A stretch of DNA of 64,000 nucleotides from the sequence record PZ154895.1; one strand, given 5' to 3'. Both the position numbers and the translations under genes were made by a program. Position 1 is the stretch's first letter, and each line of letters begins with the position of its first letter. The notes beneath the pieces are model-generated. The model was not told the origin of the DNA and did not search any database. It worked only from the letters and a program-made list of their open reading frames with translations. This document shows positions 945-34,386 of the stretch, one piece after another. The stretch comes from a phage.

Positions 945-1946
945 ATGACTCGCAACGAATATATCAAATCGTTCAACAGCGTTATTGATGATAAAGTTAA
1001 ACCTATGTCTAGTCAGAATAGTTTGATTTCTATTATCAATCAATGGCTCAATAATACTGATGCAAGTATTGTTTCTTCTGGCAAATTTATTCATGAAGTT
1101 CGTGAAATTTCTAGTCGTACAGATAAAGAAGACATTAAGAAAACCTTTAAAGGGTCTCGTCTTCTTTCATACTTAGTCAACAGAGATATTCTTAGTAAAT
1201 TTGGGAAAGAAATTAAACGAACTAAAGATGTAGTAGGATATAATTGGTTCGGTGATGTTAATTCTTATCATCTTAATAATAAAGAAGACCCTGAGAATAT
1301 TTTTACTCGTCGTTGGATTAGTAATTTCAGACTTTTCAAAGGACAAATTCTAAAATCAGCTTCTAAATTATGCTATGGCGATTATCGTCAAATTCATCCT
1401 TTGGCTTCTGATATGATTATCGTAAAAGAATATGAGCTTGATAAAAATAAAGTAGCTATTTTTGTGAATTATGGATTTTTTACACCAAACGCTAACCAAA
1501 AGAATATTAATAAATTTTTCTCAATTGCTAGCACTATAACTTATCAATTAGAGGCGGCTTTGGGCTGTATGGAAACTGTAAAAAGTATTCATACATATCC
1601 TTTCAAAAATATGTGTGGTTGGGAAGGATATAAAATTATAATTAGCCTTCGTGAAGTAAAGCGTGCGTACTCACCGACTGATAAAGAAATTTATCAACAA
1701 AAATGCGAAGAAATTGTGAATACTCCTAAAGAAGAAACTACCCTTGAGGAACTAATGGAATGTCTTGACGATTCACCTGAACCGGTAGAAATTCGTCCAG
1801 AAGTTATTGCATTAGAAAAAGCTTATAAAGAAGCTCTAGAAATTTCTAATAAAGCACAGAAAGAATATGAGAAGACTAAAAGGATTTGGGAAGAATCTGT
1901 TAATCGTCTGGATCGTCTGGAACAAGCTTTACAATTAATTAAGTAA
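945..1946 (+). CDS. hypothetical early protein, coiled-coil C-terminus
   Basis: ORF track 894..1946 begins at TTG inside the promoter; first ATG at 945 preceded by GAGGAG. Confidence 0.55.
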   Translation: MTRNEYIKSFNSVIDDKVKPMSSQNSLISIINQWLNNTDASIVSSGKFIHEVREISSRTDKEDIKKTFKGSRLLSYLVNRDILSKFGKEIKRTKDVVGYNWFGDVNSYHLNNKEDPENIFTRRWISNFRLFKGQILKSASKLCYGDYRQIHPLASDMIIVKEYELDKNKVAIFVNYGFFTPNANQKNINKFFSIASTITYQLEAALGCMETVKSIHTYPFKNMCGWEGYKIIISLREVKRAYSPTDKEIYQQKCEEIVNTPKEETTLEELMECLDDSPEPVEIRPEVIALEKAYKEALEISNKAQKEYEKTKRIWEESVNRLDRLEQALQLIK

Positions 1947-1998
1947 TTTAAAGCCAAGGATGGCTCGGAGTATAAATCATTAACCAAGTGAGAAGAAC

Positions 1999-2928
1999 AT
2001 GAAAACTCGTAAACATTATATTGATTATTTTGACAGTCTTATTACTAAACACCGTAATTATCAAATCGGGCACAGAGCAGTAATCAATAATATTCTTCGT
2101 GATTTCCTTCAATATGTTGGCCAGGAAAATCATATCTGTAAAGATACTCAAAACGCTTATTCTCATTCGTTAGGCAATTTGCTTGAATGGTTTAAACGTT
2201 CTCGTATGTTATCTTCTACTGTAGCTCGCGATAACATTAAAAACTTTATGAAGCCGAGCTTTATTAAATCTGAGACATCTATAACTGATTTGGTTGAATT
2301 TACTATTGTTAACGATGTTAAAAAGACTCATTTGGCTGATTGGTTATCTACCATTCCTGAAACTAAATTTGCTGATAAATTTGCTTGTCAATTCAATGAC
2401 CAAGTGAATATGCTTTTTAAGCATGCTCGCAAACTGTTTACCGCGGGTGATGACCGTACAAATACAGTTCATGTTAAGGATTGGGTTATTGCTGATGAAG
2501 TAACACACAAGCCAGGTGGTTCATCAGTATTAATTAATATCCAGGTTCCTTATTATTACTCACGTAATCTCGGCACCATGAATGCTAGAGAAATTAATAA
2601 GCATAACAAAACTATTCGTTCGTTGTCTTATAAACTCCGCATGATGCTAAAAATTATGGACGTAGTGGAAATGTATGACGAAACCGAAGATAATGGTTCA
2701 ATGTTATACAGTTCACGCATTCTAATTAAACTGAAGAACCCTAATACATATAAGCCAGATGTAAAAGAACCTAAAGTAGAAAAGGTTGATAACCTGAGTG
2801 AAGAACGTGAATATCTCAAATCTCGATTGGTTGAAGTTGAAGCCCAGATTGCCGAACACACCAAATTGTTAAAAGCTCTTAATGCAAAAGCAAATGGTTT
2901 ACGTAATGCTATTGAGGTATTGAAATGA
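1999..2928 (+). CDS. hypothetical early protein (309 aa), coiled-coil C-terminus
   Basis: ORF track; ATG start; C-terminal heptad-like region. Confidence 0.55.
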   Translation: MKTRKHYIDYFDSLITKHRNYQIGHRAVINNILRDFLQYVGQENHICKDTQNAYSHSLGNLLEWFKRSRMLSSTVARDNIKNFMKPSFIKSETSITDLVEFTIVNDVKKTHLADWLSTIPETKFADKFACQFNDQVNMLFKHARKLFTAGDDRTNTVHVKDWVIADEVTHKPGGSSVLINIQVPYYYSRNLGTMNAREINKHNKTIRSLSYKLRMMLKIMDVVEMYDETEDNGSMLYSSRILIKLKNPNTYKPDVKEPKVEKVDNLSEEREYLKSRLVEVEAQIAEHTKLLKALNAKANGLRNAIEVLK

Positions 2929-3242
2929 AAAAGCGTCTATTAGAAGACATTGCAGCTTCAAGTAATTCTAGTCTAATTAAAATTATTATGGCTGGTGAAG
3001 AAGACGATCTGGAAATGCGTGGAAAGATTCATGGTTGTGACGATTTAGATTTTAAACCTCCGGCATGGGATGCTATTATTGTTATGGTTGAACGCCGCGA
3101 AAGGGCTTCTAAGAATGTTCCGAACTGCCCAAAATGTGGTACTGAACAGGTACAATTAGTTCATTGGCAGACTAGTATTCTTCGTTATAAATGTCGTCAT
3201 TGCAAACACCGATTTGACCGAGAAGAAAATGAAAAAGCGTAA
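2925..3242 (+). CDS. small zinc-ribbon protein (CPKCG...CRHCKH)
   Basis: ORF track; ATGA overlap with upstream stop; GAGG 7 nt upstream; two Cys pairs. Confidence 0.5.
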
Positions 3243-3471
3243 AGAATATATGGAGATTGCTGAAAAGGCAGTCCGTGAATTAGCAATAGCGTATTATAAT
3301 GAACACGGTAAATTTCCTGATAGATACAGCGTGCTTAAATCTGCTTTAACTCGTTCATATAAAAATATGCTATCAGAAGTAAGTGATATTATATACAAAC
3401 ATAAAGAACAAACGGGCCAAAGTCTTGATTACGACGAGACTTTTAAACAAGTACTAGGAATTAAGGAATAA
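3229..3471 (+). CDS. hypothetical protein
   Basis: ORF track 3214..3471 begins at TTG; first in-frame ATG at 3229. Confidence 0.4.
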
Positions 3472-3472
3472 T

Positions 3473-3736
3473 ATGTTTAAAGTATATGGTTATGATAGCA
3501 ACATCCACAAATGTGTGTATTGCGATAATGCAAAACGTCTCTTGACTGTGAAGAAACAGCCGTTTGAATTTATCAACATTATGCCGGAAAAAGGTGTTTT
3601 TGATGATGAGAAAATCGCTGAGCTTCTGACGAAACTAGGTCGTGATACTCAAATTGGACTGACGATGCCACAAGTATTTGCTCCTGATGGAAGTCATATT
3701 GGTGGATTTGACCAATTGCGGGAATACTTTAAATGA
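3473..3736 (+). CDS. nrdC: phage glutaredoxin/thioredoxin NrdC
   Basis: 87 aa; CVYC redox motif; matches T4 NrdC as recalled; AAGGA SD. Confidence 0.9.
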   Translation: MFKVYGYDSNIHKCVYCDNAKRLLTVKKQPFEFINIMPEKGVFDDEKIAELLTKLGRDTQIGLTMPQVFAPDGSHIGGFDQLREYFK

Positions 3737-3948
3737 TGCTCGAAGGAACTGATTATATCCATGACTACCGCGGAAGCGCGGTATATGTAGGTGATGAGGT
3801 TGCAGTTTATTATGGGTATGGAACTTTGATGACAGCAAAGGTTATTCAAATTAAAAATAATCGTGCTAAACTCGAAGTTTATTATTCTAATGGTGAAAAG
3901 TCTATTTCTAAATGGAAATATGGCGATTGCATGGTCAAACTGGGGTAA
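3733..3948 (+). CDS. hypothetical protein (71 aa)
   Basis: ORF track; ATGA overlap with nrdC stop. Confidence 0.45.
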   Translation: MMLEGTDYIHDYRGSAVYVGDEVAVYYGYGTLMTAKVIQIKNNRAKLEVYYSNGEKSISKWKYGDCMVKLG

Positions 3949-3950
3949 AT

Positions 3951-4121
3951 ATGATTTACGATATTAGTGTATCAAGAACTCCGTCAATGGTTACTATTCC
4001 AGCCGAAGAATTAGATCGTCTTCAGAAAATTGAAGAGCTTCTTTGGGAAATTGAATCTGATTTGCCATCAGGACTAGAATCCTGGATTGATTATGAAGAA
4101 CTTAATAAATTGCGAAATTAA
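3951..4121 (+). CDS. hypothetical protein
   Basis: ORF track 3912..4121; in-frame ATG at 3951 just after upstream stop; alternative start 3912. Confidence 0.4.
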   Translation: MIYDISVSRTPSMVTIPAEELDRLQKIEELLWEIESDLPSGLESWIDYEELNKLRN

Positions 4122-4131
4122 TTGGTGACAA

Positions 4132-4452
4132 ATGAATATTGAAAATAAATTAGATGTTGATGCAGTTCTGAGTGAAATCATTGAAGACCATGATGCATTT
4201 TCAGAAAACTATGATTTCGATTTTTCCGATTATCTTAAACCTGTCGAAATAGAAGACTGGGTGCAAGACGGTAAATGTCAATATCGTCAGTGTGTTTATT
4301 TTAGTCCAAAACATAACGTTCATGTGTCTGTAAATGAATCTCGCTCAGGTTCTTACCATTCTGACTGGTATTATGCAGTTCCGACTGTTGAACTAGTCGA
4401 GCCCCGTGAACGTGTAGTAACTCAGACAATACGAGAATGGATTACGCTATAA
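4132..4452 (+). CDS. hypothetical protein (106 aa)
   Basis: ORF track. Confidence 0.5.
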   Translation: MNIENKLDVDAVLSEIIEDHDAFSENYDFDFSDYLKPVEIEDWVQDGKCQYRQCVYFSPKHNVHVSVNESRSGSYHSDWYYAVPTVELVEPRERVVTQTIREWITL

Positions 4453-13407: not shown

Positions 13408-13548
13408 ATGATATTTCTTGGATATGTGATACTTTTTCTAGCGTTTTATTTGTTCACCAGAGCATGTTGGATTGGGTTCTTTAGTACTCCAGATGGATTT
13501 ATTTCAATAATTTTATTTTGCATTTCAATGACGGTTCTTGATATATGA
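13408..13548 (+). CDS. small hydrophobic peptide (46 aa)
   Basis: ATG after GGAG; stop overlaps start of next gene (ATGA). Confidence 0.35.
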   Translation: MIFLGYVILFLAFYLFTRACWIGFFSTPDGFISIILFCISMTVLDI

Positions 13549-14168
13549 AAAAATATATAACTTATTTAACAATATATAGTGGAGATAAACTTCCTCCTTT
13601 TTATATTGGATCTACATCTTTAGACAGGCATTTAGCCGGATATCATGGATCAGTTTTATCTAAAAAGTATAAGAAAATTTATAATGAAGAACTTTCAAAT
13701 AACCCACATTTATTTGATTCATGCATTTTAGATGAATTTGATACACGCGAAGAAGCTATTAAATGCGAGCTATATTATCAACGTTTGCATGATGCGGTTA
13801 AAAATCCATTATTCTTTAATATGTCATATGCTGCTCCAAAAGGTTCATTTGGAAGAGATATTAAAGGACAAAATCATCCATTATATGGTTCTCATAATTG
13901 TAAAGGAAACATACATTCACATGACCCATTAACAGGAAAATCTGCCTTTTTACCGTATATTCCAGAAGGTTATGTAAAAGGAAGGTCAAATAAATTTAAA
14001 GCTTCATCACATAATAAAGGTAAAAAATGGTATAATAACGGAGTTAAGCAAATGTTATGTCATGAACCTCCTGGTCCTGAATGGACAAAAGGAAAAATTA
14101 AAGAACTAGTTTCAAAAGCAGCTAAATTAGGATGGAAAAGACACCATGAAAATACTAAACTTGGGTGA
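13545..14168 (+). CDS. GIY-YIG family homing endonuclease-like protein (seg-like)
   Basis: N-terminal YLTIY...(10 aa)...FYIGST with downstream R and E (EEAIKCELYY); basic C-terminal half; 3' end overlaps gene 47 by 23 nt. Confidence 0.6.
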   Translation: MKKYITYLTIYSGDKLPPFYIGSTSLDRHLAGYHGSVLSKKYKKIYNEELSNNPHLFDSCILDEFDTREEAIKCELYYQRLHDAVKNPLFFNMSYAAPKGSFGRDIKGQNHPLYGSHNCKGNIHSHDPLTGKSAFLPYIPEGYVKGRSNKFKASSHNKGKKWYNNGVKQMLCHEPPGPEWTKGKIKELVSKAAKLGWKRHHENTKLG

Positions 14169-15425: not shown

Positions 15426-15612
15426 CATTAACGATGAATTCATAGCAAATATTGATTACACCGAAGAAGATTCTAGATATGTTGGAATAATTTATATCAC
15501 ATCAAAAGCAGCACAAGGTGTTGTTTGCATGGCTGAATTTGATGAATACTTTTTAGATTATGATGATATGATAGAATGGTCTAAAAGATACATTAAAAGG
15601 AATCTTTTGTGA
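15397..15612 (+). CDS. hypothetical protein; start uncertain
   Basis: ORF track 15349..15612; in-frame ATG 15397 or GTG 15406. Confidence 0.35.
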   Translation: MHTVKFSTFDINDEFIANIDYTEEDSRYVGIIYITSKAAQGVVCMAEFDEYFLDYDDMIEWSKRYIKRNLL

Positions 15613-17297
15613 AGAATTTTAAACTAAACCGAGTTAGGTATCAAAATATAATGTCAGTAGGTGGAAATCCTATTGACATTCAACTAGATAAGGTTCAAAA
15701 AACTCTTATTACTGGGCGAAATGGTGGTGGTAAGTCTACTATGTTAGAAGCCATCACATTTGGGCTTTTTGGCAAGCCATTTCGTGATGTAAAGAAAGGT
15801 CAATTAATAAACAGCACAAATAAGAAAGAACTTTTAGTTGAACTGTGGATGGAATATGATGAGAAAAAGTACTATATCAAAAGAGGACAAAAACCAAACG
15901 TTTTCGAAATCACCGTTAACGGTACACGTCTTAATGAATCTGCCAGCAGTAAAGATTTCCAAGCAGAATTTGAACAGCTTATCGGAATGTCATATGCCAG
16001 TTTCAAGCAGATTGTTGTCCTTGGTACAGCAGGGTATACCCCTTTCATGGGTTTGTCGACCCCTGCGCGAAGAAAGCTTGTGGAAGACCTGCTCGAGGTA
16101 GGAACATTAGCTGAAATGGATAAGCTTAATAAAGCACTAATACGTGAATTAAATTCACAAAACCAAGTGCTTGATGTTAAAAAAGATAGTATTATCCAAC
16201 AAATTAAAATATATAATGATAACGTTGAACGCCAGAAAAAATTAACTGGTGATAACCTTACTCGTCTGCAGAACATGTATGATGATTTGGCAAAAGAAGC
16301 TAGAACGTTAAAATCGGAAATAGAAGAAGCTAATGAAAGATTAGTTAATATTGTTTTGGATGAAGACCCGACTGATGCATTTAATAAAATCGGTCAAGAA
16401 GCATTTTTAATTAAATCAAAAATTGACTCGTATAATAAAGTCATTAATATGTATCACGAAGGTGGATTATGTCCAACCTGTTTGTCACAATTAAGTTCCG
16501 GTGATAAAGTTGTTTCTAAAATTAAAGATAAAGTTTCTGAATGCACGCATTCATTTGAACAGCTTTCAACACATCGTGATAATTTAAAAGTTCTTGTTGA
16601 TGAATACCGAGATAATATTAAAACCCAGCAGACGTTGGCAAATGATATTCGCAATAAAAAGCAATCCTTAATCACGACGGTAGATAAAGCTAAAAAAGTT
16701 AAAGCGGCTATAGAAAAAGCATCATCTGAGTTTATTGACCATGCTGATGAAATAGCACTGCTTCAAGAAGAACTTGATAAAATTGTTAAGACAAAAACTA
16801 ATTTAGTAATGGAAAAATACCACAGAGGAATTTTGACTGATATGCTCAAAGATTCTGGTATTAAAGGTGCTATTATTAAAAAGTACATTCCATTATTTAA
16901 TAAGCAGATTAACCATTATCTTAAAATAATGGAAGCGGATTATGTGTTTACATTAGATGAAGAATTTAATGAAACAATTAAATCCCGTGGTCGTGAAGAT
17001 TTTAGTTATGCTTCATTTAGTCAAGGTGAAAAAGCACGAATTGATATTGCTCTTTTATTTACTTGGCGTGATATTGCTGAAAAAGTTTCAGGTGTTAAAA
17101 TAAGCTGTTTATTTCTTGATGAAGTATATGACGGTGCATTTGATGCTGAAGGTATTAAAAATGTAGCTAAAATTTTAGATGGTTTGAAGGATACCAACTT
17201 CTTCATAATTTCGCATAAAGACCATGACCCACAAGAATATGGTCAGCATATTCAGATGGAAAAAGTTGGTAGATTTAGTTTAGCTAAGATTAGCTAG
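15609..17297 (+). CDS. 46: recombination endonuclease subunit gp46 (Rad50/SbcC-like ATPase)
   Basis: 562 aa; Walker A GRNGGGKST; CPTC zinc hook; matches T4 gp46; GTG start. Confidence 0.93.
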   Translation: MKNFKLNRVRYQNIMSVGGNPIDIQLDKVQKTLITGRNGGGKSTMLEAITFGLFGKPFRDVKKGQLINSTNKKELLVELWMEYDEKKYYIKRGQKPNVFEITVNGTRLNESASSKDFQAEFEQLIGMSYASFKQIVVLGTAGYTPFMGLSTPARRKLVEDLLEVGTLAEMDKLNKALIRELNSQNQVLDVKKDSIIQQIKIYNDNVERQKKLTGDNLTRLQNMYDDLAKEARTLKSEIEEANERLVNIVLDEDPTDAFNKIGQEAFLIKSKIDSYNKVINMYHEGGLCPTCLSQLSSGDKVVSKIKDKVSECTHSFEQLSTHRDNLKVLVDEYRDNIKTQQTLANDIRNKKQSLITTVDKAKKVKAAIEKASSEFIDHADEIALLQEELDKIVKTKTNLVMEKYHRGILTDMLKDSGIKGAIIKKYIPLFNKQINHYLKIMEADYVFTLDEEFNETIKSRGREDFSYASFSQGEKARIDIALLFTWRDIAEKVSGVKISCLFLDEVYDGAFDAEGIKNVAKILDGLKDTNFFIISHKDHDPQEYGQHIQMEKVGRFSLAKIS

Positions 17298-18006
17298 GTT
17301 TATATTTACAGTTATCATTATGCCATCTTGATAAATTTCCGAAAGTGGTAACTTTACCACAATGGACGCAAGTACCAGTCTTTTCAGTTTTCTTGCGTCC
17401 ATTTGGATTTTTCTTGCAGAAATTTCTATGCGCTGCGATAACGCATTTCTTGCCTATCATTCCACAGAATTCGCAGGATGTTTCTTCAAGAACGATTGCT
17501 TTAAGCCCGTTTGAGATATTATTTCTGTGTTCTTTAGACATTGGTGGTCTAACTTTAGGATTAGGGTGATTTGGACAGTTATCAAAATGCCAACGATTCA
17601 TATTCCCGCTTAATCCAGACTTACCGCAATGAGGACAAGTTAGTCTTGCTTTATTAGCTACTGCATCAGACATTTTCTTTCGTGTCTCCTGGGAGAATTC
17701 TTTGTTCTTTTCTATTTCCCAGAGTTTACGACGAATCCAACCGAAAGTTTTATTGTTGCGTTTAGCGTATTTCGTGGAAACTGTCATCATGTTAGCAGCA
17801 TAGACTAATTTTGGTTCAGAAGGATAAATTTTTACTAAAAGTTGATGAGCTACATAGTGCTCTTCTGGCGTTAAATCTACTAAGTTTGAAGCATCATCAC
17901 TACCGTTTAAACAGCGTGGTATAATGTGATGAGATTCAGTATAGCAATCAAGTTTTCGAGATTTAGCATTAGAGATTAACTTTTCATAAATTAGTTTATA
18001 ATTCAT
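17290..18006 (-). CDS. HNH homing endonuclease with three C-terminal zinc-finger-like repeats
   Basis: HNH core ESHHIIPR...SNLVDLTPEEHYVAH; three CxxC...W(H)xDNC repeats; AAGGA SD; only minus-strand gene inside the plus-strand replication cluster; 3' end overlaps gene 46 by 8 nt. Confidence 0.75.
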   Translation of the reverse strand: MNYKLIYEKLISNAKSRKLDCYTESHHIIPRCLNGSDDASNLVDLTPEEHYVAHQLLVKIYPSEPKLVYAANMMTVSTKYAKRNNKTFGWIRRKLWEIEKNKEFSQETRKKMSDAVANKARLTCPHCGKSGLSGNMNRWHFDNCPNHPNPKVRPPMSKEHRNNISNGLKAIVLEETSCEFCGMIGKKCVIAAHRNFCKKNPNGRKKTEKTGTCVHCGKVTTFGNLSRWHNDNCKYKPS

Positions 18007-18057
18007 AACATATCCTTTTGATACAGCGAGTGATAAACATATTTATACGGAGGAACT

Positions 18058-18249
18058 GTGGCAGAATATTTAACTGGACAGCATCTATTAACTATTCCTG
18101 AAATAAAACGATATATTCTGAGAAATAATTTTTCTAATGAAGAGCATATAGTTACTGAATCTATGCTTAAGAATGCATTTAAATCAGAATATACGAAAAT
18201 AATGTCCAACAGGAATGAAGCTTGGACTGTTACTGATTATTATGACTAA
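18058..18249 (+). CDS. hypothetical protein (63 aa)
   Basis: ORF track; GTG start after GGAGG. Confidence 0.45.
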   Translation: MAEYLTGQHLLTIPEIKRYILRNNFSNEEHIVTESMLKNAFKSEYTKIMSNRNEAWTVTDYYD

Positions 18250-18258
18250 AGGTGTATT

Positions 18259-18648
18259 ATGACTAAAATTACTGTGAATTATACTGTTGATGTAAAAGAT
18301 ATTCAGCCAAAACACGTGCGTTCTGAATCAAATCCGCAAAACCAAAATAAAATTCGTCGAGCATGGGTTTTGTCTCTTTCTGATAACGCAATGGAAGTTA
18401 TTCAGAATAAAATTAAATCTGCACCTGCTCGTCATGCGTATTATGAAGCTATCGATCGTGAAGTGAGTGATAAATGGATTGAACTAATGCGCAAACATAC
18501 GACAGAATCTCTAAATGCTGGCGCTAAATTTATTATGACTTCATGCGGTGAACGCCTTGAAGATGATTATTGCGGTAATGCAGATGAACGTCTAATTGTT
18601 GCTGCTCAAATTGTTGCGGAAACAATTGCTGCTGATTTTAATCGTTAA
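18259..18648 (+). CDS. rpbA: RNA polymerase-binding protein RpbA
   Basis: 129 aa as in T4; position immediately upstream of gene 45. Confidence 0.8.
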
Positions 18649-34180: not shown

Positions 34181-34386
34181 AATTTGATTTTTATGCATGG
34201 CAAAAAGCCGGTAGACCTGCTAGTCGAGCATTTGGTTCTGATGGATATAATATTAGAGCCCATTGGAAGTTTAATGCTCCAGCCGATTATTCTCCGGTAA
34301 TTATTAATGGTGATGTTGTTATATTAACTAAAATTGGATATTTTAACGTTCCGCGAGAATTTATTATAAATAATCATGTAATTTAA
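34177..34386 (+). CDS. hypothetical protein (69 aa)
   Basis: ORF track; ATGA overlap. Confidence 0.4.
   Translation: MKFDFYAWQKAGRPASRAFGSDGYNIRAHWKFNAPADYSPVIINGDVVILTKIGYFNVPREFIINNHVI
34365..34372 (+). promoter_or_regulatory. late promoter TATAAATA upstream of soc
   Basis: TATAAATA about 30 nt upstream of soc ATG (approx.). Confidence 0.5.

Follow-up and report, generated by a model that had tools for sequence, protein, structure and literature searches.

Several homing endonucleases of T-even phages are well described. Among the free-standing HNH enzymes of T4, those listed as active include MobE, for which nrdB is given as the target gene (PMC2988022 Table 1; PMC2790892), and mob genes in T4 are transcribed in the same direction as their neighbors, several of them having no promoter of their own (PMC2988022). 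I-TevIII, encoded in the nrdB intron of phage RB3, combines an HNH nuclease with zinc fingers of the form CX2CX12-13HX3C, which bind zinc, are required for DNA binding and also mediate dimerization (PMC1865063); it functions as a dimer and introduces a double-strand break. SegG, from the T4 gene 32 region, and SegF are free-standing enzymes that, according to papers cited in PMC2993671 (refs 53-54), have their targets in the adjoining conserved gene and co-convert flanking markers. I-TevI is expressed from a late promoter and represses its own synthesis via an operator resembling its homing site at 15 of 20 positions (PMC2988022). Here we analyze a gene that has features in common with each of these systems, located in a 64,000-nt stretch of phage DNA (the window).

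An antisense gene between genes 46 and 45.2

An ORF of 238 aa with an ATG start occupies positions 17290..18006 on the minus strand. A reading based on the sequence alone had proposed it as an HNH homing endonuclease gene, and its product matched PHROG 655 'homing endonuclease' (E 9e-69) and had 2304 homologues. When orthologues were compared, dN/dS was 0.10-0.22 with saturated synonymous sites. Given these three results we discarded the possibility of a chance ORF, and purifying selection on the gene is, as judged from the sequence comparisons, strong. No other free-standing ORF of 100 aa or more lies on the minus strand ahead of the late genes (~57.8 kb), in agreement with the claim that it is the sole minus-strand gene of its region, and tblastn found no further HNH paralogue in the window.

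The gene itself is already known and is not a discovery, since RB32 and dozens of other records carry a homing endonuclease annotation at this locus. RB32ORF054w (YP_802996.1) encodes a 99.6% identical protein in the same 46/45.2 position and orientation, with copies in RB33, RB51, RB68 and other Tequatrovirus genomes, and we see no difference of substance from the present gene, which is its orthologue. It is annotated as 'homing endonuclease; similar to mobB', and PMC2993671 Table 5, where the ORFs are unnamed, presumably includes it among the two mob-like HNH genes counted in RB32; in the literature searched, we found neither mention of RB32ORF054w nor experimental work on it.

Upstream on the plus strand lies gene 46 (15609..17297; 562 aa), which encodes the SbcC/Rad50-like recombination nuclease subunit. 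The right-hand neighbor is not rpbA, as had been thought, but gene 45.2 (18058..18249, plus strand; Pfam Gp45_2 E 5e-35, and aligned to its T4 counterpart), with rpbA beyond it. In T4, genes 46 and 45.2 are indeed separated by nothing but a 55-bp spacer, which is replaced in the present genome by a cassette of ~960 bp (window ~17104-18066) comprising a variant gene 46 3′ end, the antisense endonuclease gene, a late promoter with its leader, and an altered start of gene 45.2 (GTG plus an extra Ala codon, compared with ATG and 62 aa in the T4 version). The ORF is intergenic and on the opposite strand between the intact genes 46 and 45.2, and thus does not belong to the intron-encoded class. The suggestion that insertion left gene 46 undisrupted holds for its reading frame, which is intact, but not for its sequence: over its final ~65 codons it has a haplotype of its own, in which 20-22 amino acids differ and the tail is new, so that the product has 562 aa versus 560 in T4. 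The endonuclease ORF overlaps the gene 46 stop by 8 nt, as reported. However, this overlap is not conserved, as the corresponding junctions of orthologues have a 5-nt gap, a 4-nt overlap or a 23-nt overlap, and no terminator was predicted at the gene 46/endonuclease junction; we therefore reject the idea that termination of the two convergent genes is coupled.

We found the gene in 59 GenBank phage records out of ~505 that are Tequatrovirus-like, the remaining ~445 being without it. Carriage among T4-like phages is thus about one in ten, which is not the distribution of a core gene conserved in T4 and most T-even genomes. Junction alleles were drawn from GenBank records, as an exact 22-mer search of IMG/VR gave only 3 contigs. 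Orthologues in Dhakavirus, Mosigvirus, a Klebsiella phage and more distant contigs are likewise convergent after gene 46, and this arrangement persists down to 44% protein identity.

The T4 late-promoter consensus TATAAATA is present on the minus strand at 18040..18047, within the inserted DNA and 41 nt upstream of the endonuclease ATG. There are 4 copies of this motif in the window compared with ~10 expected, and two of the others directly precede minus-strand ORFs of the late-gene block. The motif is conserved in four orthologues, being located 41-53 nt upstream of the gene in those of MX01, Roth78 and G2469. The antisense orientation implies that early and middle read-through transcripts would yield no enzyme. 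Between the promoter and the start codon we identified a 19-nt leader block, ATCACTCGCTGTATCAAAA (18016..18034, minus strand), in which 15-17 of 19 positions are kept among four orthologues despite the saturation of synonymous sites, and which is a candidate operator or homing-site copy. A mobE-like RNA hairpin masking the ribosome-binding site was also considered and set aside, RNAalifold having returned zero pairs for the four leaders, a weak negative at n=4.

Domain organization of the predicted protein

The N-terminal part of the protein (residues 1-95; 17722..18006, minus strand) is a Mob-type HNH catalytic domain, of the predicted beta-beta-alpha-Me type, homologous to MobA-E. Its identity is highest to MobE (66%), followed by MobD (53%), MobB (44%) and MobC (37%), with BLASTP E-values of 2e-41 for MobE, 4e-29 for MobB, 7e-23 for MobD and 9e-22 for MobC. 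The proposed core, HHIIPR...N...EEHYVAH, spans residues 26-54, and an alignment of 38 homologues showed H26, H27, N41, H50 and H54 to be invariant, so that none of the catalytic residues has been lost. Their counterparts in I-TevIII are H26, H27, N39 and H48, which were mutated in PMC1865063. An AF2 model of the whole protein (pLDDT 91.6) places strands at residues 24-27 and 42-45 and a helix at 47-60 in this region. Pfam HNH (PF01844) scored 16.9 bits (E 0.007), below its gathering cut-off of 21.4, which we attribute to insensitivity of the Pfam model to this Cys-less subtype, given the strength of the PHROG 655 match; NUMOD3 was also under the Pfam threshold in this protein. A PDB sequence search gave a best E of only 0.17, and the whole model yielded no significant match in fold searches.

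The C-terminal part carries three C-x2-C-x11/12-H-x3-C motifs, as anticipated in the sequence-only reading, while the W(H)xDNC ending ascribed to all of them is found, as RWHxDNC, only in fingers 1 and 3, finger 2 ending in AAHRNFC. All three are encoded on the minus strand: finger 1, CPHCGKSGLSGNMNRWHFDNC (residues 124-144; 17575..17637), is conserved in all orthologues; finger 2, CEFCGMIGKKCVIAAHRNFC (residues 178-197; 17416..17475), aligns to I-TevIII finger 1 (C211/C214); and finger 3, CVHCGKVTTFGNLSRWHNDNC (residues 213-233; 17308..17370), aligns to I-TevIII finger 2 (C242/C245), with its ligands C213, C216, H229 and C233 invariant among the 38 homologues. Residues 174-236, which include fingers 2 and 3, align to I-TevIII-like residues 207-266 with 37% identity (E 8e-8), and the AF2 model predicts a beta-beta-alpha module for each of the three fingers. 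Across orthologues of 44-65% identity, 12/12 finger ligands and all HNH residues are kept. At the level of sequence the protein is therefore a hybrid, in which a Mob-type HNH domain is combined with three CCHC fingers of the I-TevIII type, an array that should read the DNA target. Taken together with the sporadic occurrence of the gene in T-even phages, these comparisons favor the view that it encodes a homing endonuclease of the free-standing HNH kind, equipped with a DNA-binding tail of zinc fingers.

The linked gene 46 haplotype and the predicted target

We aligned 6 carriers with 6 non-carriers and found ~99% identity in the sequence before 17080 and again from 18067. Between these flanks, the 3′ end of gene 46 from Walker B to the stop (17104..17297, plus strand) forms an endonuclease-linked haplotype that is ~20-25% diverged from endonuclease-free alleles. 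Over the final 213 bp of gene 46, 60 records reach an identity of 92.8% or more, whereas no other record exceeds 81%; of these 60, 59 also have the endonuclease gene. The sequence-only reading had expected localized marker exclusion around this locus, and a tightly linked flanking haplotype is the kind of trace that such exclusion would leave; proximity alone, however, predicts that a patch flanking an insertion will be tightly linked to it, and 20% divergence by itself suppresses recombination. Endonuclease-free alleles of the T4 and RB27 types are also distinct from one another here, and the patch is therefore not uniquely tied to the endonuclease gene.

We consider it probable that the gene encodes a late-expressed, free-standing T-even endonuclease of the Mob kind whose target is the 3′ end of gene 46. 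According to this model, the enzyme would be made late in mixed infection from the TATAAATA promoter and would nick or cut endonuclease-free genomes inside the terminal ~200 bp of gene 46, most probably close to the codons directly following Walker B. Recombinational repair off a carrier genome would then copy the segment from the break through the endonuclease gene, and carrier genomes would be protected because their own gene 46 stretch is recoded. The leader block suggests where the recognition region may lie, as it shares 16-17 of 19 positions with gene 46 in endonuclease-free alleles of the RB27 type; the predicted region (17126..17144, minus strand) covers codons 507-512, just after the Walker B LDE, and is mutated in the present genome. 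In 219 kb, non-self matches of at least 17/19 to ATCACTCGCTGTATCAAAA were found only in gene 46 of RB27-type endonuclease-free alleles. This match is modest after multiple testing (z 3.7, best of 36 comparisons), and the promoter/leader region aligned locally with the T4-type endonuclease-free allele no better than shuffled sequences did.

Alternatively, the enzyme may cut at or beside the junction of the gene 46 stop and the gene 45.2 start, with the gene 46 patch hitch-hiking or representing an older polymorphism. Such a junction site would be destroyed by the insert, which replaces the entire spacer and changes both gene ends, with seven fixed differences no more than 35 nt from the junction; in addition, T4 and RB27 endonuclease-free alleles share 97-100% identity across the final ~60-90 nt plus spacer, which would provide a single conserved target, and the leader block is without a match in T4-type alleles. 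Three observations nonetheless lead us to regard a junction cut as unlikely. Linkage is one-sided, extending ~190 bp toward gene 46 and less than 10 bp toward gene 45.2. In carrier/non-carrier pairs from three genera (Tequatrovirus, Dhakavirus and Mosigvirus), the identity break maps to the same place, ~-215 to -240 nt from the gene 46 end, at the Walker B codons. Finally, KMB22 has the gene 46 patch yet lacks the endonuclease gene and has an endonuclease-free junction, which may reflect the partial conversion to be expected if the break were distant from the insert.

A second alternative is that the gene has ceased to be mainly selfish and is kept vertically as a beneficial nuclease or DNA-binding regulator, for example as a weapon that cuts the essential gene 46 of co-infecting phages or as a late regulator at 46/45.2. 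Its locus and orientation are constant in at least 4 genera, the leader element is conserved, selection on the protein is strong, and divergence of the endonuclease is in step with that of gp46 (64% vs 69% and 44% vs 44%), a pattern that would fit long vertical co-residence equally well as active homing; a phage intron endonuclease reported to act in competition among co-infecting viruses (PMC11620839) offers a precedent. However, the gene is patchy within each genus (59 of ~505 in Tequatrovirus), so that cycles of gain and loss fit better than a fixed useful gene, and a role in competition is compatible with homing; we find this alternative improbable. An inactive relic that has lost cleavage and is drifting toward loss would have company in mobA-D and segD, which are among the many T4 endonuclease genes without demonstrated activity (PMC2988022 Table 1), but is very improbable here, as the frame is unbroken in every carrier examined, the HNH residues and finger ligands are conserved among distant orthologues, and dN/dS is low at saturated synonymous divergence.

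A broader version of homing into gene 46 can be put forward tentatively, and as a whole we consider it rather doubtful. The lineage may have tracked the post-Walker B site of gp46 across many T4-like genera, its own leader retaining a copy of the gene 46 site for autoregulation, and repeated invasion, partial conversion and loss may have generated the ~200-bp gene 46 patch in all T-evens, including the split between T4-type and RB27-type endonuclease-free genomes.

As a putative homing endonuclease annotated in public genomes, this is an ordinary feature; what the analysis adds is a predicted target in the terminal ~200 bp of gene 46, probably at codons 507-512. The locus also offers a natural example of domain shuffling between a Mob-type nuclease and I-TevIII-type fingers, and of a recombination boundary, associated with the endonuclease, whose position at the same codons is shared by three genera. 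If homing into gene 46 is correct, it would provide one more worked case for the T4 homing-endonuclease model system and would explain a local hypervariable patch in an essential recombination gene that is otherwise ~99% conserved.

Comparison with known homing endonucleases

The present gene resembles T4 mobA-E in its homologous N-terminal HNH domain, its free-standing position between conserved genes and its sporadic distribution. The T4 Mob proteins, however, are without zinc fingers and their C-terminal halves are unrelated to that of the present protein, and unlike the T4 mob genes this one is antisense and brings its own late promoter. The homology to I-TevIII is with fingers 2 and 3, BLASTP giving no alignment between the I-TevIII HNH domain and the present protein, and I-TevIII further differs in being intron-encoded and in having two fingers rather than three. 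The likeness to I-TevI lies in the late promoter and a nearby block resembling a homing site, here at 16-17 of 19 positions and in RB27-type alleles only; whereas the I-TevI operator is positioned over the promoter, the candidate block is downstream of it, covering ~+1 to +19 on the assumption of a transcription start ~6-8 nt beyond TATAAATA. SegG and SegF differ in that they are GIY-YIG enzymes, are co-oriented with their neighbors and have been experimentally proven. The one-sided linked tract in gene 46 nevertheless matches the intronless homing with a distant cleavage site described for these two enzymes.

An antisense HNH gene downstream of gene 46

The HNH open reading frame (ORF) lies on the minus strand at 17290..18006 and encodes 238 aa from an ATG start, exactly as the sequence-only reading had described. 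The 8-nt overlap reported there with the gene 46 stop was also found, as the convergent gene 46 ends at 17297. Gene 46 was correctly named as one neighbor; the other is not rpbA (18259..18648) but 45.2 (18058..18249; Pfam Gp45_2, E 5e-35), with rpbA next beyond it. The claim that this is the only antisense gene of the cluster was essentially right: all remaining minus-strand ORFs of 100 aa or more ahead of the late-gene block (~57.8 kb) overlap plus-strand genes, and a Pfam search of two of these gave no match. Coupled termination of the two convergent genes, also proposed there, was rejected because no terminator was predicted and the stop-codon overlap varies among orthologs. The gene is indeed absent from T4, where only 55 bp separate gene 46 from 45.2. 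Homology to T4 is lost ~15 nt ahead of the gene 46 stop codon and restarts at the 45.2 ribosome-binding site, and the ends of both neighboring genes are changed, with gp46 ending in ...RFSLAKIS (562 aa) in the window and ...RFTVMV (560 aa) in T4, and 45.2 starting with GTG-GCA in the window and ATG in T4.

The HNH motif, SHHIIPRCLNGSDDASNLVDLTPEEHYVAH, spans residues 25-54, and its core was borne out by a 38-sequence alignment in which H26, H27, N41, H50, H54 and the finger 3 ligands are all invariant. Three C-x2-C-x11/12-H-x3-C motifs (fingers 1, 2 and 3; residues 124-144, 178-197 and 213-233) are present as claimed, but they are not fully alike, since the RWHxDNC ending occurs only in fingers 1 and 3 and finger 2 has AAHRNFC. 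An AlphaFold model built from this alignment was confident (pLDDT 91.6), and in it residues 24-60 fold as a beta-beta-alpha core and each of the three fingers as a beta-beta-alpha module; fold searches with the whole model were uninformative. The protein matched PHROG 655 "homing endonuclease" (E 9e-69) and had 2304 homologs in a collection of 5.8 billion proteins. Its Pfam HNH score was below the cut-off (16.9 vs 21.4 bits), which we attribute to limited sensitivity of the model for this Cys-less subtype. Between ortholog pairs, synonymous sites are saturated (pS 0.62-0.79) and dN/dS is 0.10-0.22, indicating from sequence comparison that the protein is under purifying selection.

The surrounding 3.8-kb region was matched along its full length by 60 phage records. 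The RB32 copy, RB32ORF054w (YP_802996.1), is 99.6% identical and annotated "homing endonuclease; similar to mobB". According to a 2010 review, RB32 has two mob-like HNH genes, with the ORFs unnamed (PMC2993671, Table 5); RB32ORF054w is presumably one of them. Our literature search found no paper naming the ORF and no experimental work on it. Reading it as a T-even homing endonuclease gene is supported in substance, with a putative enzyme and a predicted target, and it is an ordinary, already annotated member of the T-even repertoire. Its main interest lies in a specific target prediction, a conserved antisense late-promoter arrangement and a recurrent recombination boundary in gene 46.

Other endonuclease genes lie nearby. 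A 207-aa ORF at 13545-14168 (+), upstream of gene 47 and overlapping its start by 23 nt, resembles GIY-YIG proteins at its N-terminus (19.9 bits with the Pfam GIY-YIG model, just under the cut-off) and probably represents a second free-standing homing endonuclease gene of this phage, one of the Seg-like kind; at this spot T4 and RB32 carry nothing but the 46-aa gene 47.1. The carriers SYGD1 and G28 have another annotated "homing endonuclease" (855 nt; locus 1-96) directly upstream of gene 46, a place occupied by 46.1/46.2 in T4 and in the window. The 47-46-45.2 region therefore has at least three separate endonuclease insertion sites.

A linked haplotype at the 3' end of gene 46

The HNH ORF was contiguous with its gene 46 haplotype in 59 GenBank records, many of them RefSeq/GenBank duplicates of the same phage. 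The T4 junction matched 505 records, 248 of which covered at least 80% of it; among the matches listed, a second class (e.g., RB27) aligned over query positions 74-351 only, and carriers came after. Carriers are a minority within Tequatrovirus, the sole genus counted. Dhakavirus MX01, Mosigvirus G2469 and Klebsiella phage Roth78 have three-finger orthologs of 57-65% identity in the same convergent place after gene 46, and three IMG/VR contigs (L004-L006) carry a 44% identical ortholog, likewise with three fingers, abutting a gp46 that is also only 44% identical. These shared positions indicate that the association with the gene 46 3' end is old and widespread. The G2469 record gives sliding-clamp gene 45 as a pair of overlapping ORFs of 222 and 537 nt (locus 3697-4438), which could reflect a frameshift or a sequencing error.

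When six carriers and six non-carriers were aligned, identity between the two groups was ~99% both before ~17080 and from 18067 on. Between ~17104 and the stop codon of gene 46, all aligned carriers shared one haplotype, which departs from T4-type and RB27-type alleles at 34-39 codons (20-22 non-synonymous). Linkage is one-sided, extending ~190 bp toward gene 46 and <10 bp toward 45.2. Across GenBank, identity over a 213-bp segment of this haplotype was 92.8% or higher in 60 records and no more than 81% in all others, and 59 of the 60 have the HNH ORF. In the exception, KMB22 (OR539217), a carrier-type patch continues into a gene 46 end and spacer of the endonuclease-free kind, with the crossover within the conserved block encoding IISHKDHD. 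This natural recombinant (locus 700-960), whose spacer is T4-type and lacks the HNH gene, is a useful natural test substrate for target immunity.

In carrier/non-carrier pairs from three genera (one genome of each kind for Dhakavirus and Mosigvirus), gene 46 identity is 93-100% up to ~-215 to -240 nt from its end and 47-80% beyond, with the LDE codons of Walker B at -174 to -180. The pattern recurs independently in the three genera. If the break lay near Walker B and all sequence between it and the endonuclease gene were necessarily co-converted, the boundary, the asymmetry and KMB22 would be accounted for together. Proximity by itself also produces linkage, however, and the T4-type and RB27-type non-carrier alleles also differ mutually in the -215 to -90 patch. 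Between the T4 and RB27 classes, the last ~215 to ~90 nt of gene 46 are 30-37% different and the rest of the gene is 97-100% identical; this patch may be a relic of earlier cycles of invasion and loss.

Late promoter, leader block and predicted target

A T4 late-promoter consensus, TATAAATA (18047-18040, minus), lies within the inserted DNA 41 nt upstream of the HNH ORF ATG and is followed by an AAGGA Shine-Dalgarno sequence. The octamer is rarer than expected in the 64-kb window (4 copies vs ~10). Two of the other three copies immediately precede minus-strand ORFs of the late-gene block; judging by their sizes and the gene order of T4, we provisionally take these ORFs to be t and 36. The sole plus-strand copy is in the early-gene region (34365-34372). 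TATAAATA also occurs 42-53 nt upstream of the ATG in the MX01, Roth78 and G2469 orthologs. In L004-L006 (144-179 kb), CCTAAATA replaces it ~55-48 nt upstream of the ATG (locus position 4001), together with a related leader (...GTATCTAACGGACTATCAAA...), and may be a late-promoter variant of that phage group.

Between promoter and Shine-Dalgarno sequence is a 19-nt block, ATCACTCGCTGTATCAAAA (18034-18016, minus), kept at 15-17 of 19 positions among four orthologs despite the saturated synonymous coding sites; no conserved RNA fold of the leader was predicted. A two-strand scan of 219 kb of fetched T-even DNA gave non-self matches of 17/19 or better only in gene 46 of RB27-type endonuclease-free genomes, on the same strand. 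The site is ATCGGTCGCTGAATCAAAA in phiD1 and PYps47T (17/19), GTCGGTCGCTGAATCAAAA in RB27 (16/19) and ATCAGTTGCTGAATCAAAA in DCP2 (16/19); carriers have ATCAAATGCACCGTCATAT at this position, and T4-type alleles gave no match. The matching nucleotides make up the codons F-D-S-A-T-D that directly follow Walker B, where the linked tract begins. The match has modest statistics after multiple testing, and we only tentatively predict that these codons might be the endonuclease site.

Comparison with known T-even endonucleases

The I-TevI operator at its late promoter resembles the I-TevI homing site (PMC2988022), a likeness paralleled here by the leader block and the putative gene 46 target. Residues 1-95 form a T4 Mob-type HNH domain (identity to MobE 66%, MobD 53%, MobB 44% and MobC 37%); Mob proteins, however, lack fingers and have unrelated C-terminal halves. 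Fingers 2 and 3 (residues 174-236) align with the finger pair of an I-TevIII-like ORF from an intron of phage e11/2 (37% identity, E 8e-8). In I-TevIII, each CX2CX12-13HX3C motif binds one zinc and is required for DNA binding, and the catalytic residues mutated were H26, H27, N39 and H48 (PMC1865063). The protein is thus a modular hybrid of a Mob-type nuclease and a finger array of the I-TevIII type that has an additional finger. In e11/2, a MobE-type HNH gene lies between two annotated nrdA pieces (1434 and 990 nt; L086, locus 1033-4201), a split ribonucleotide reductase gene, and in the adjacent locus (L103) an I-TevIII-like ORF separates the two annotated pieces of nrdB.

Given the antisense orientation, early or middle transcription reading through from gene 46 would yield no message translatable into the enzyme. 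T4 endonuclease genes are all co-oriented with their neighbors except the promoter-less segD (PMC2988022), so that an antisense gene with its own late promoter represents a different solution.
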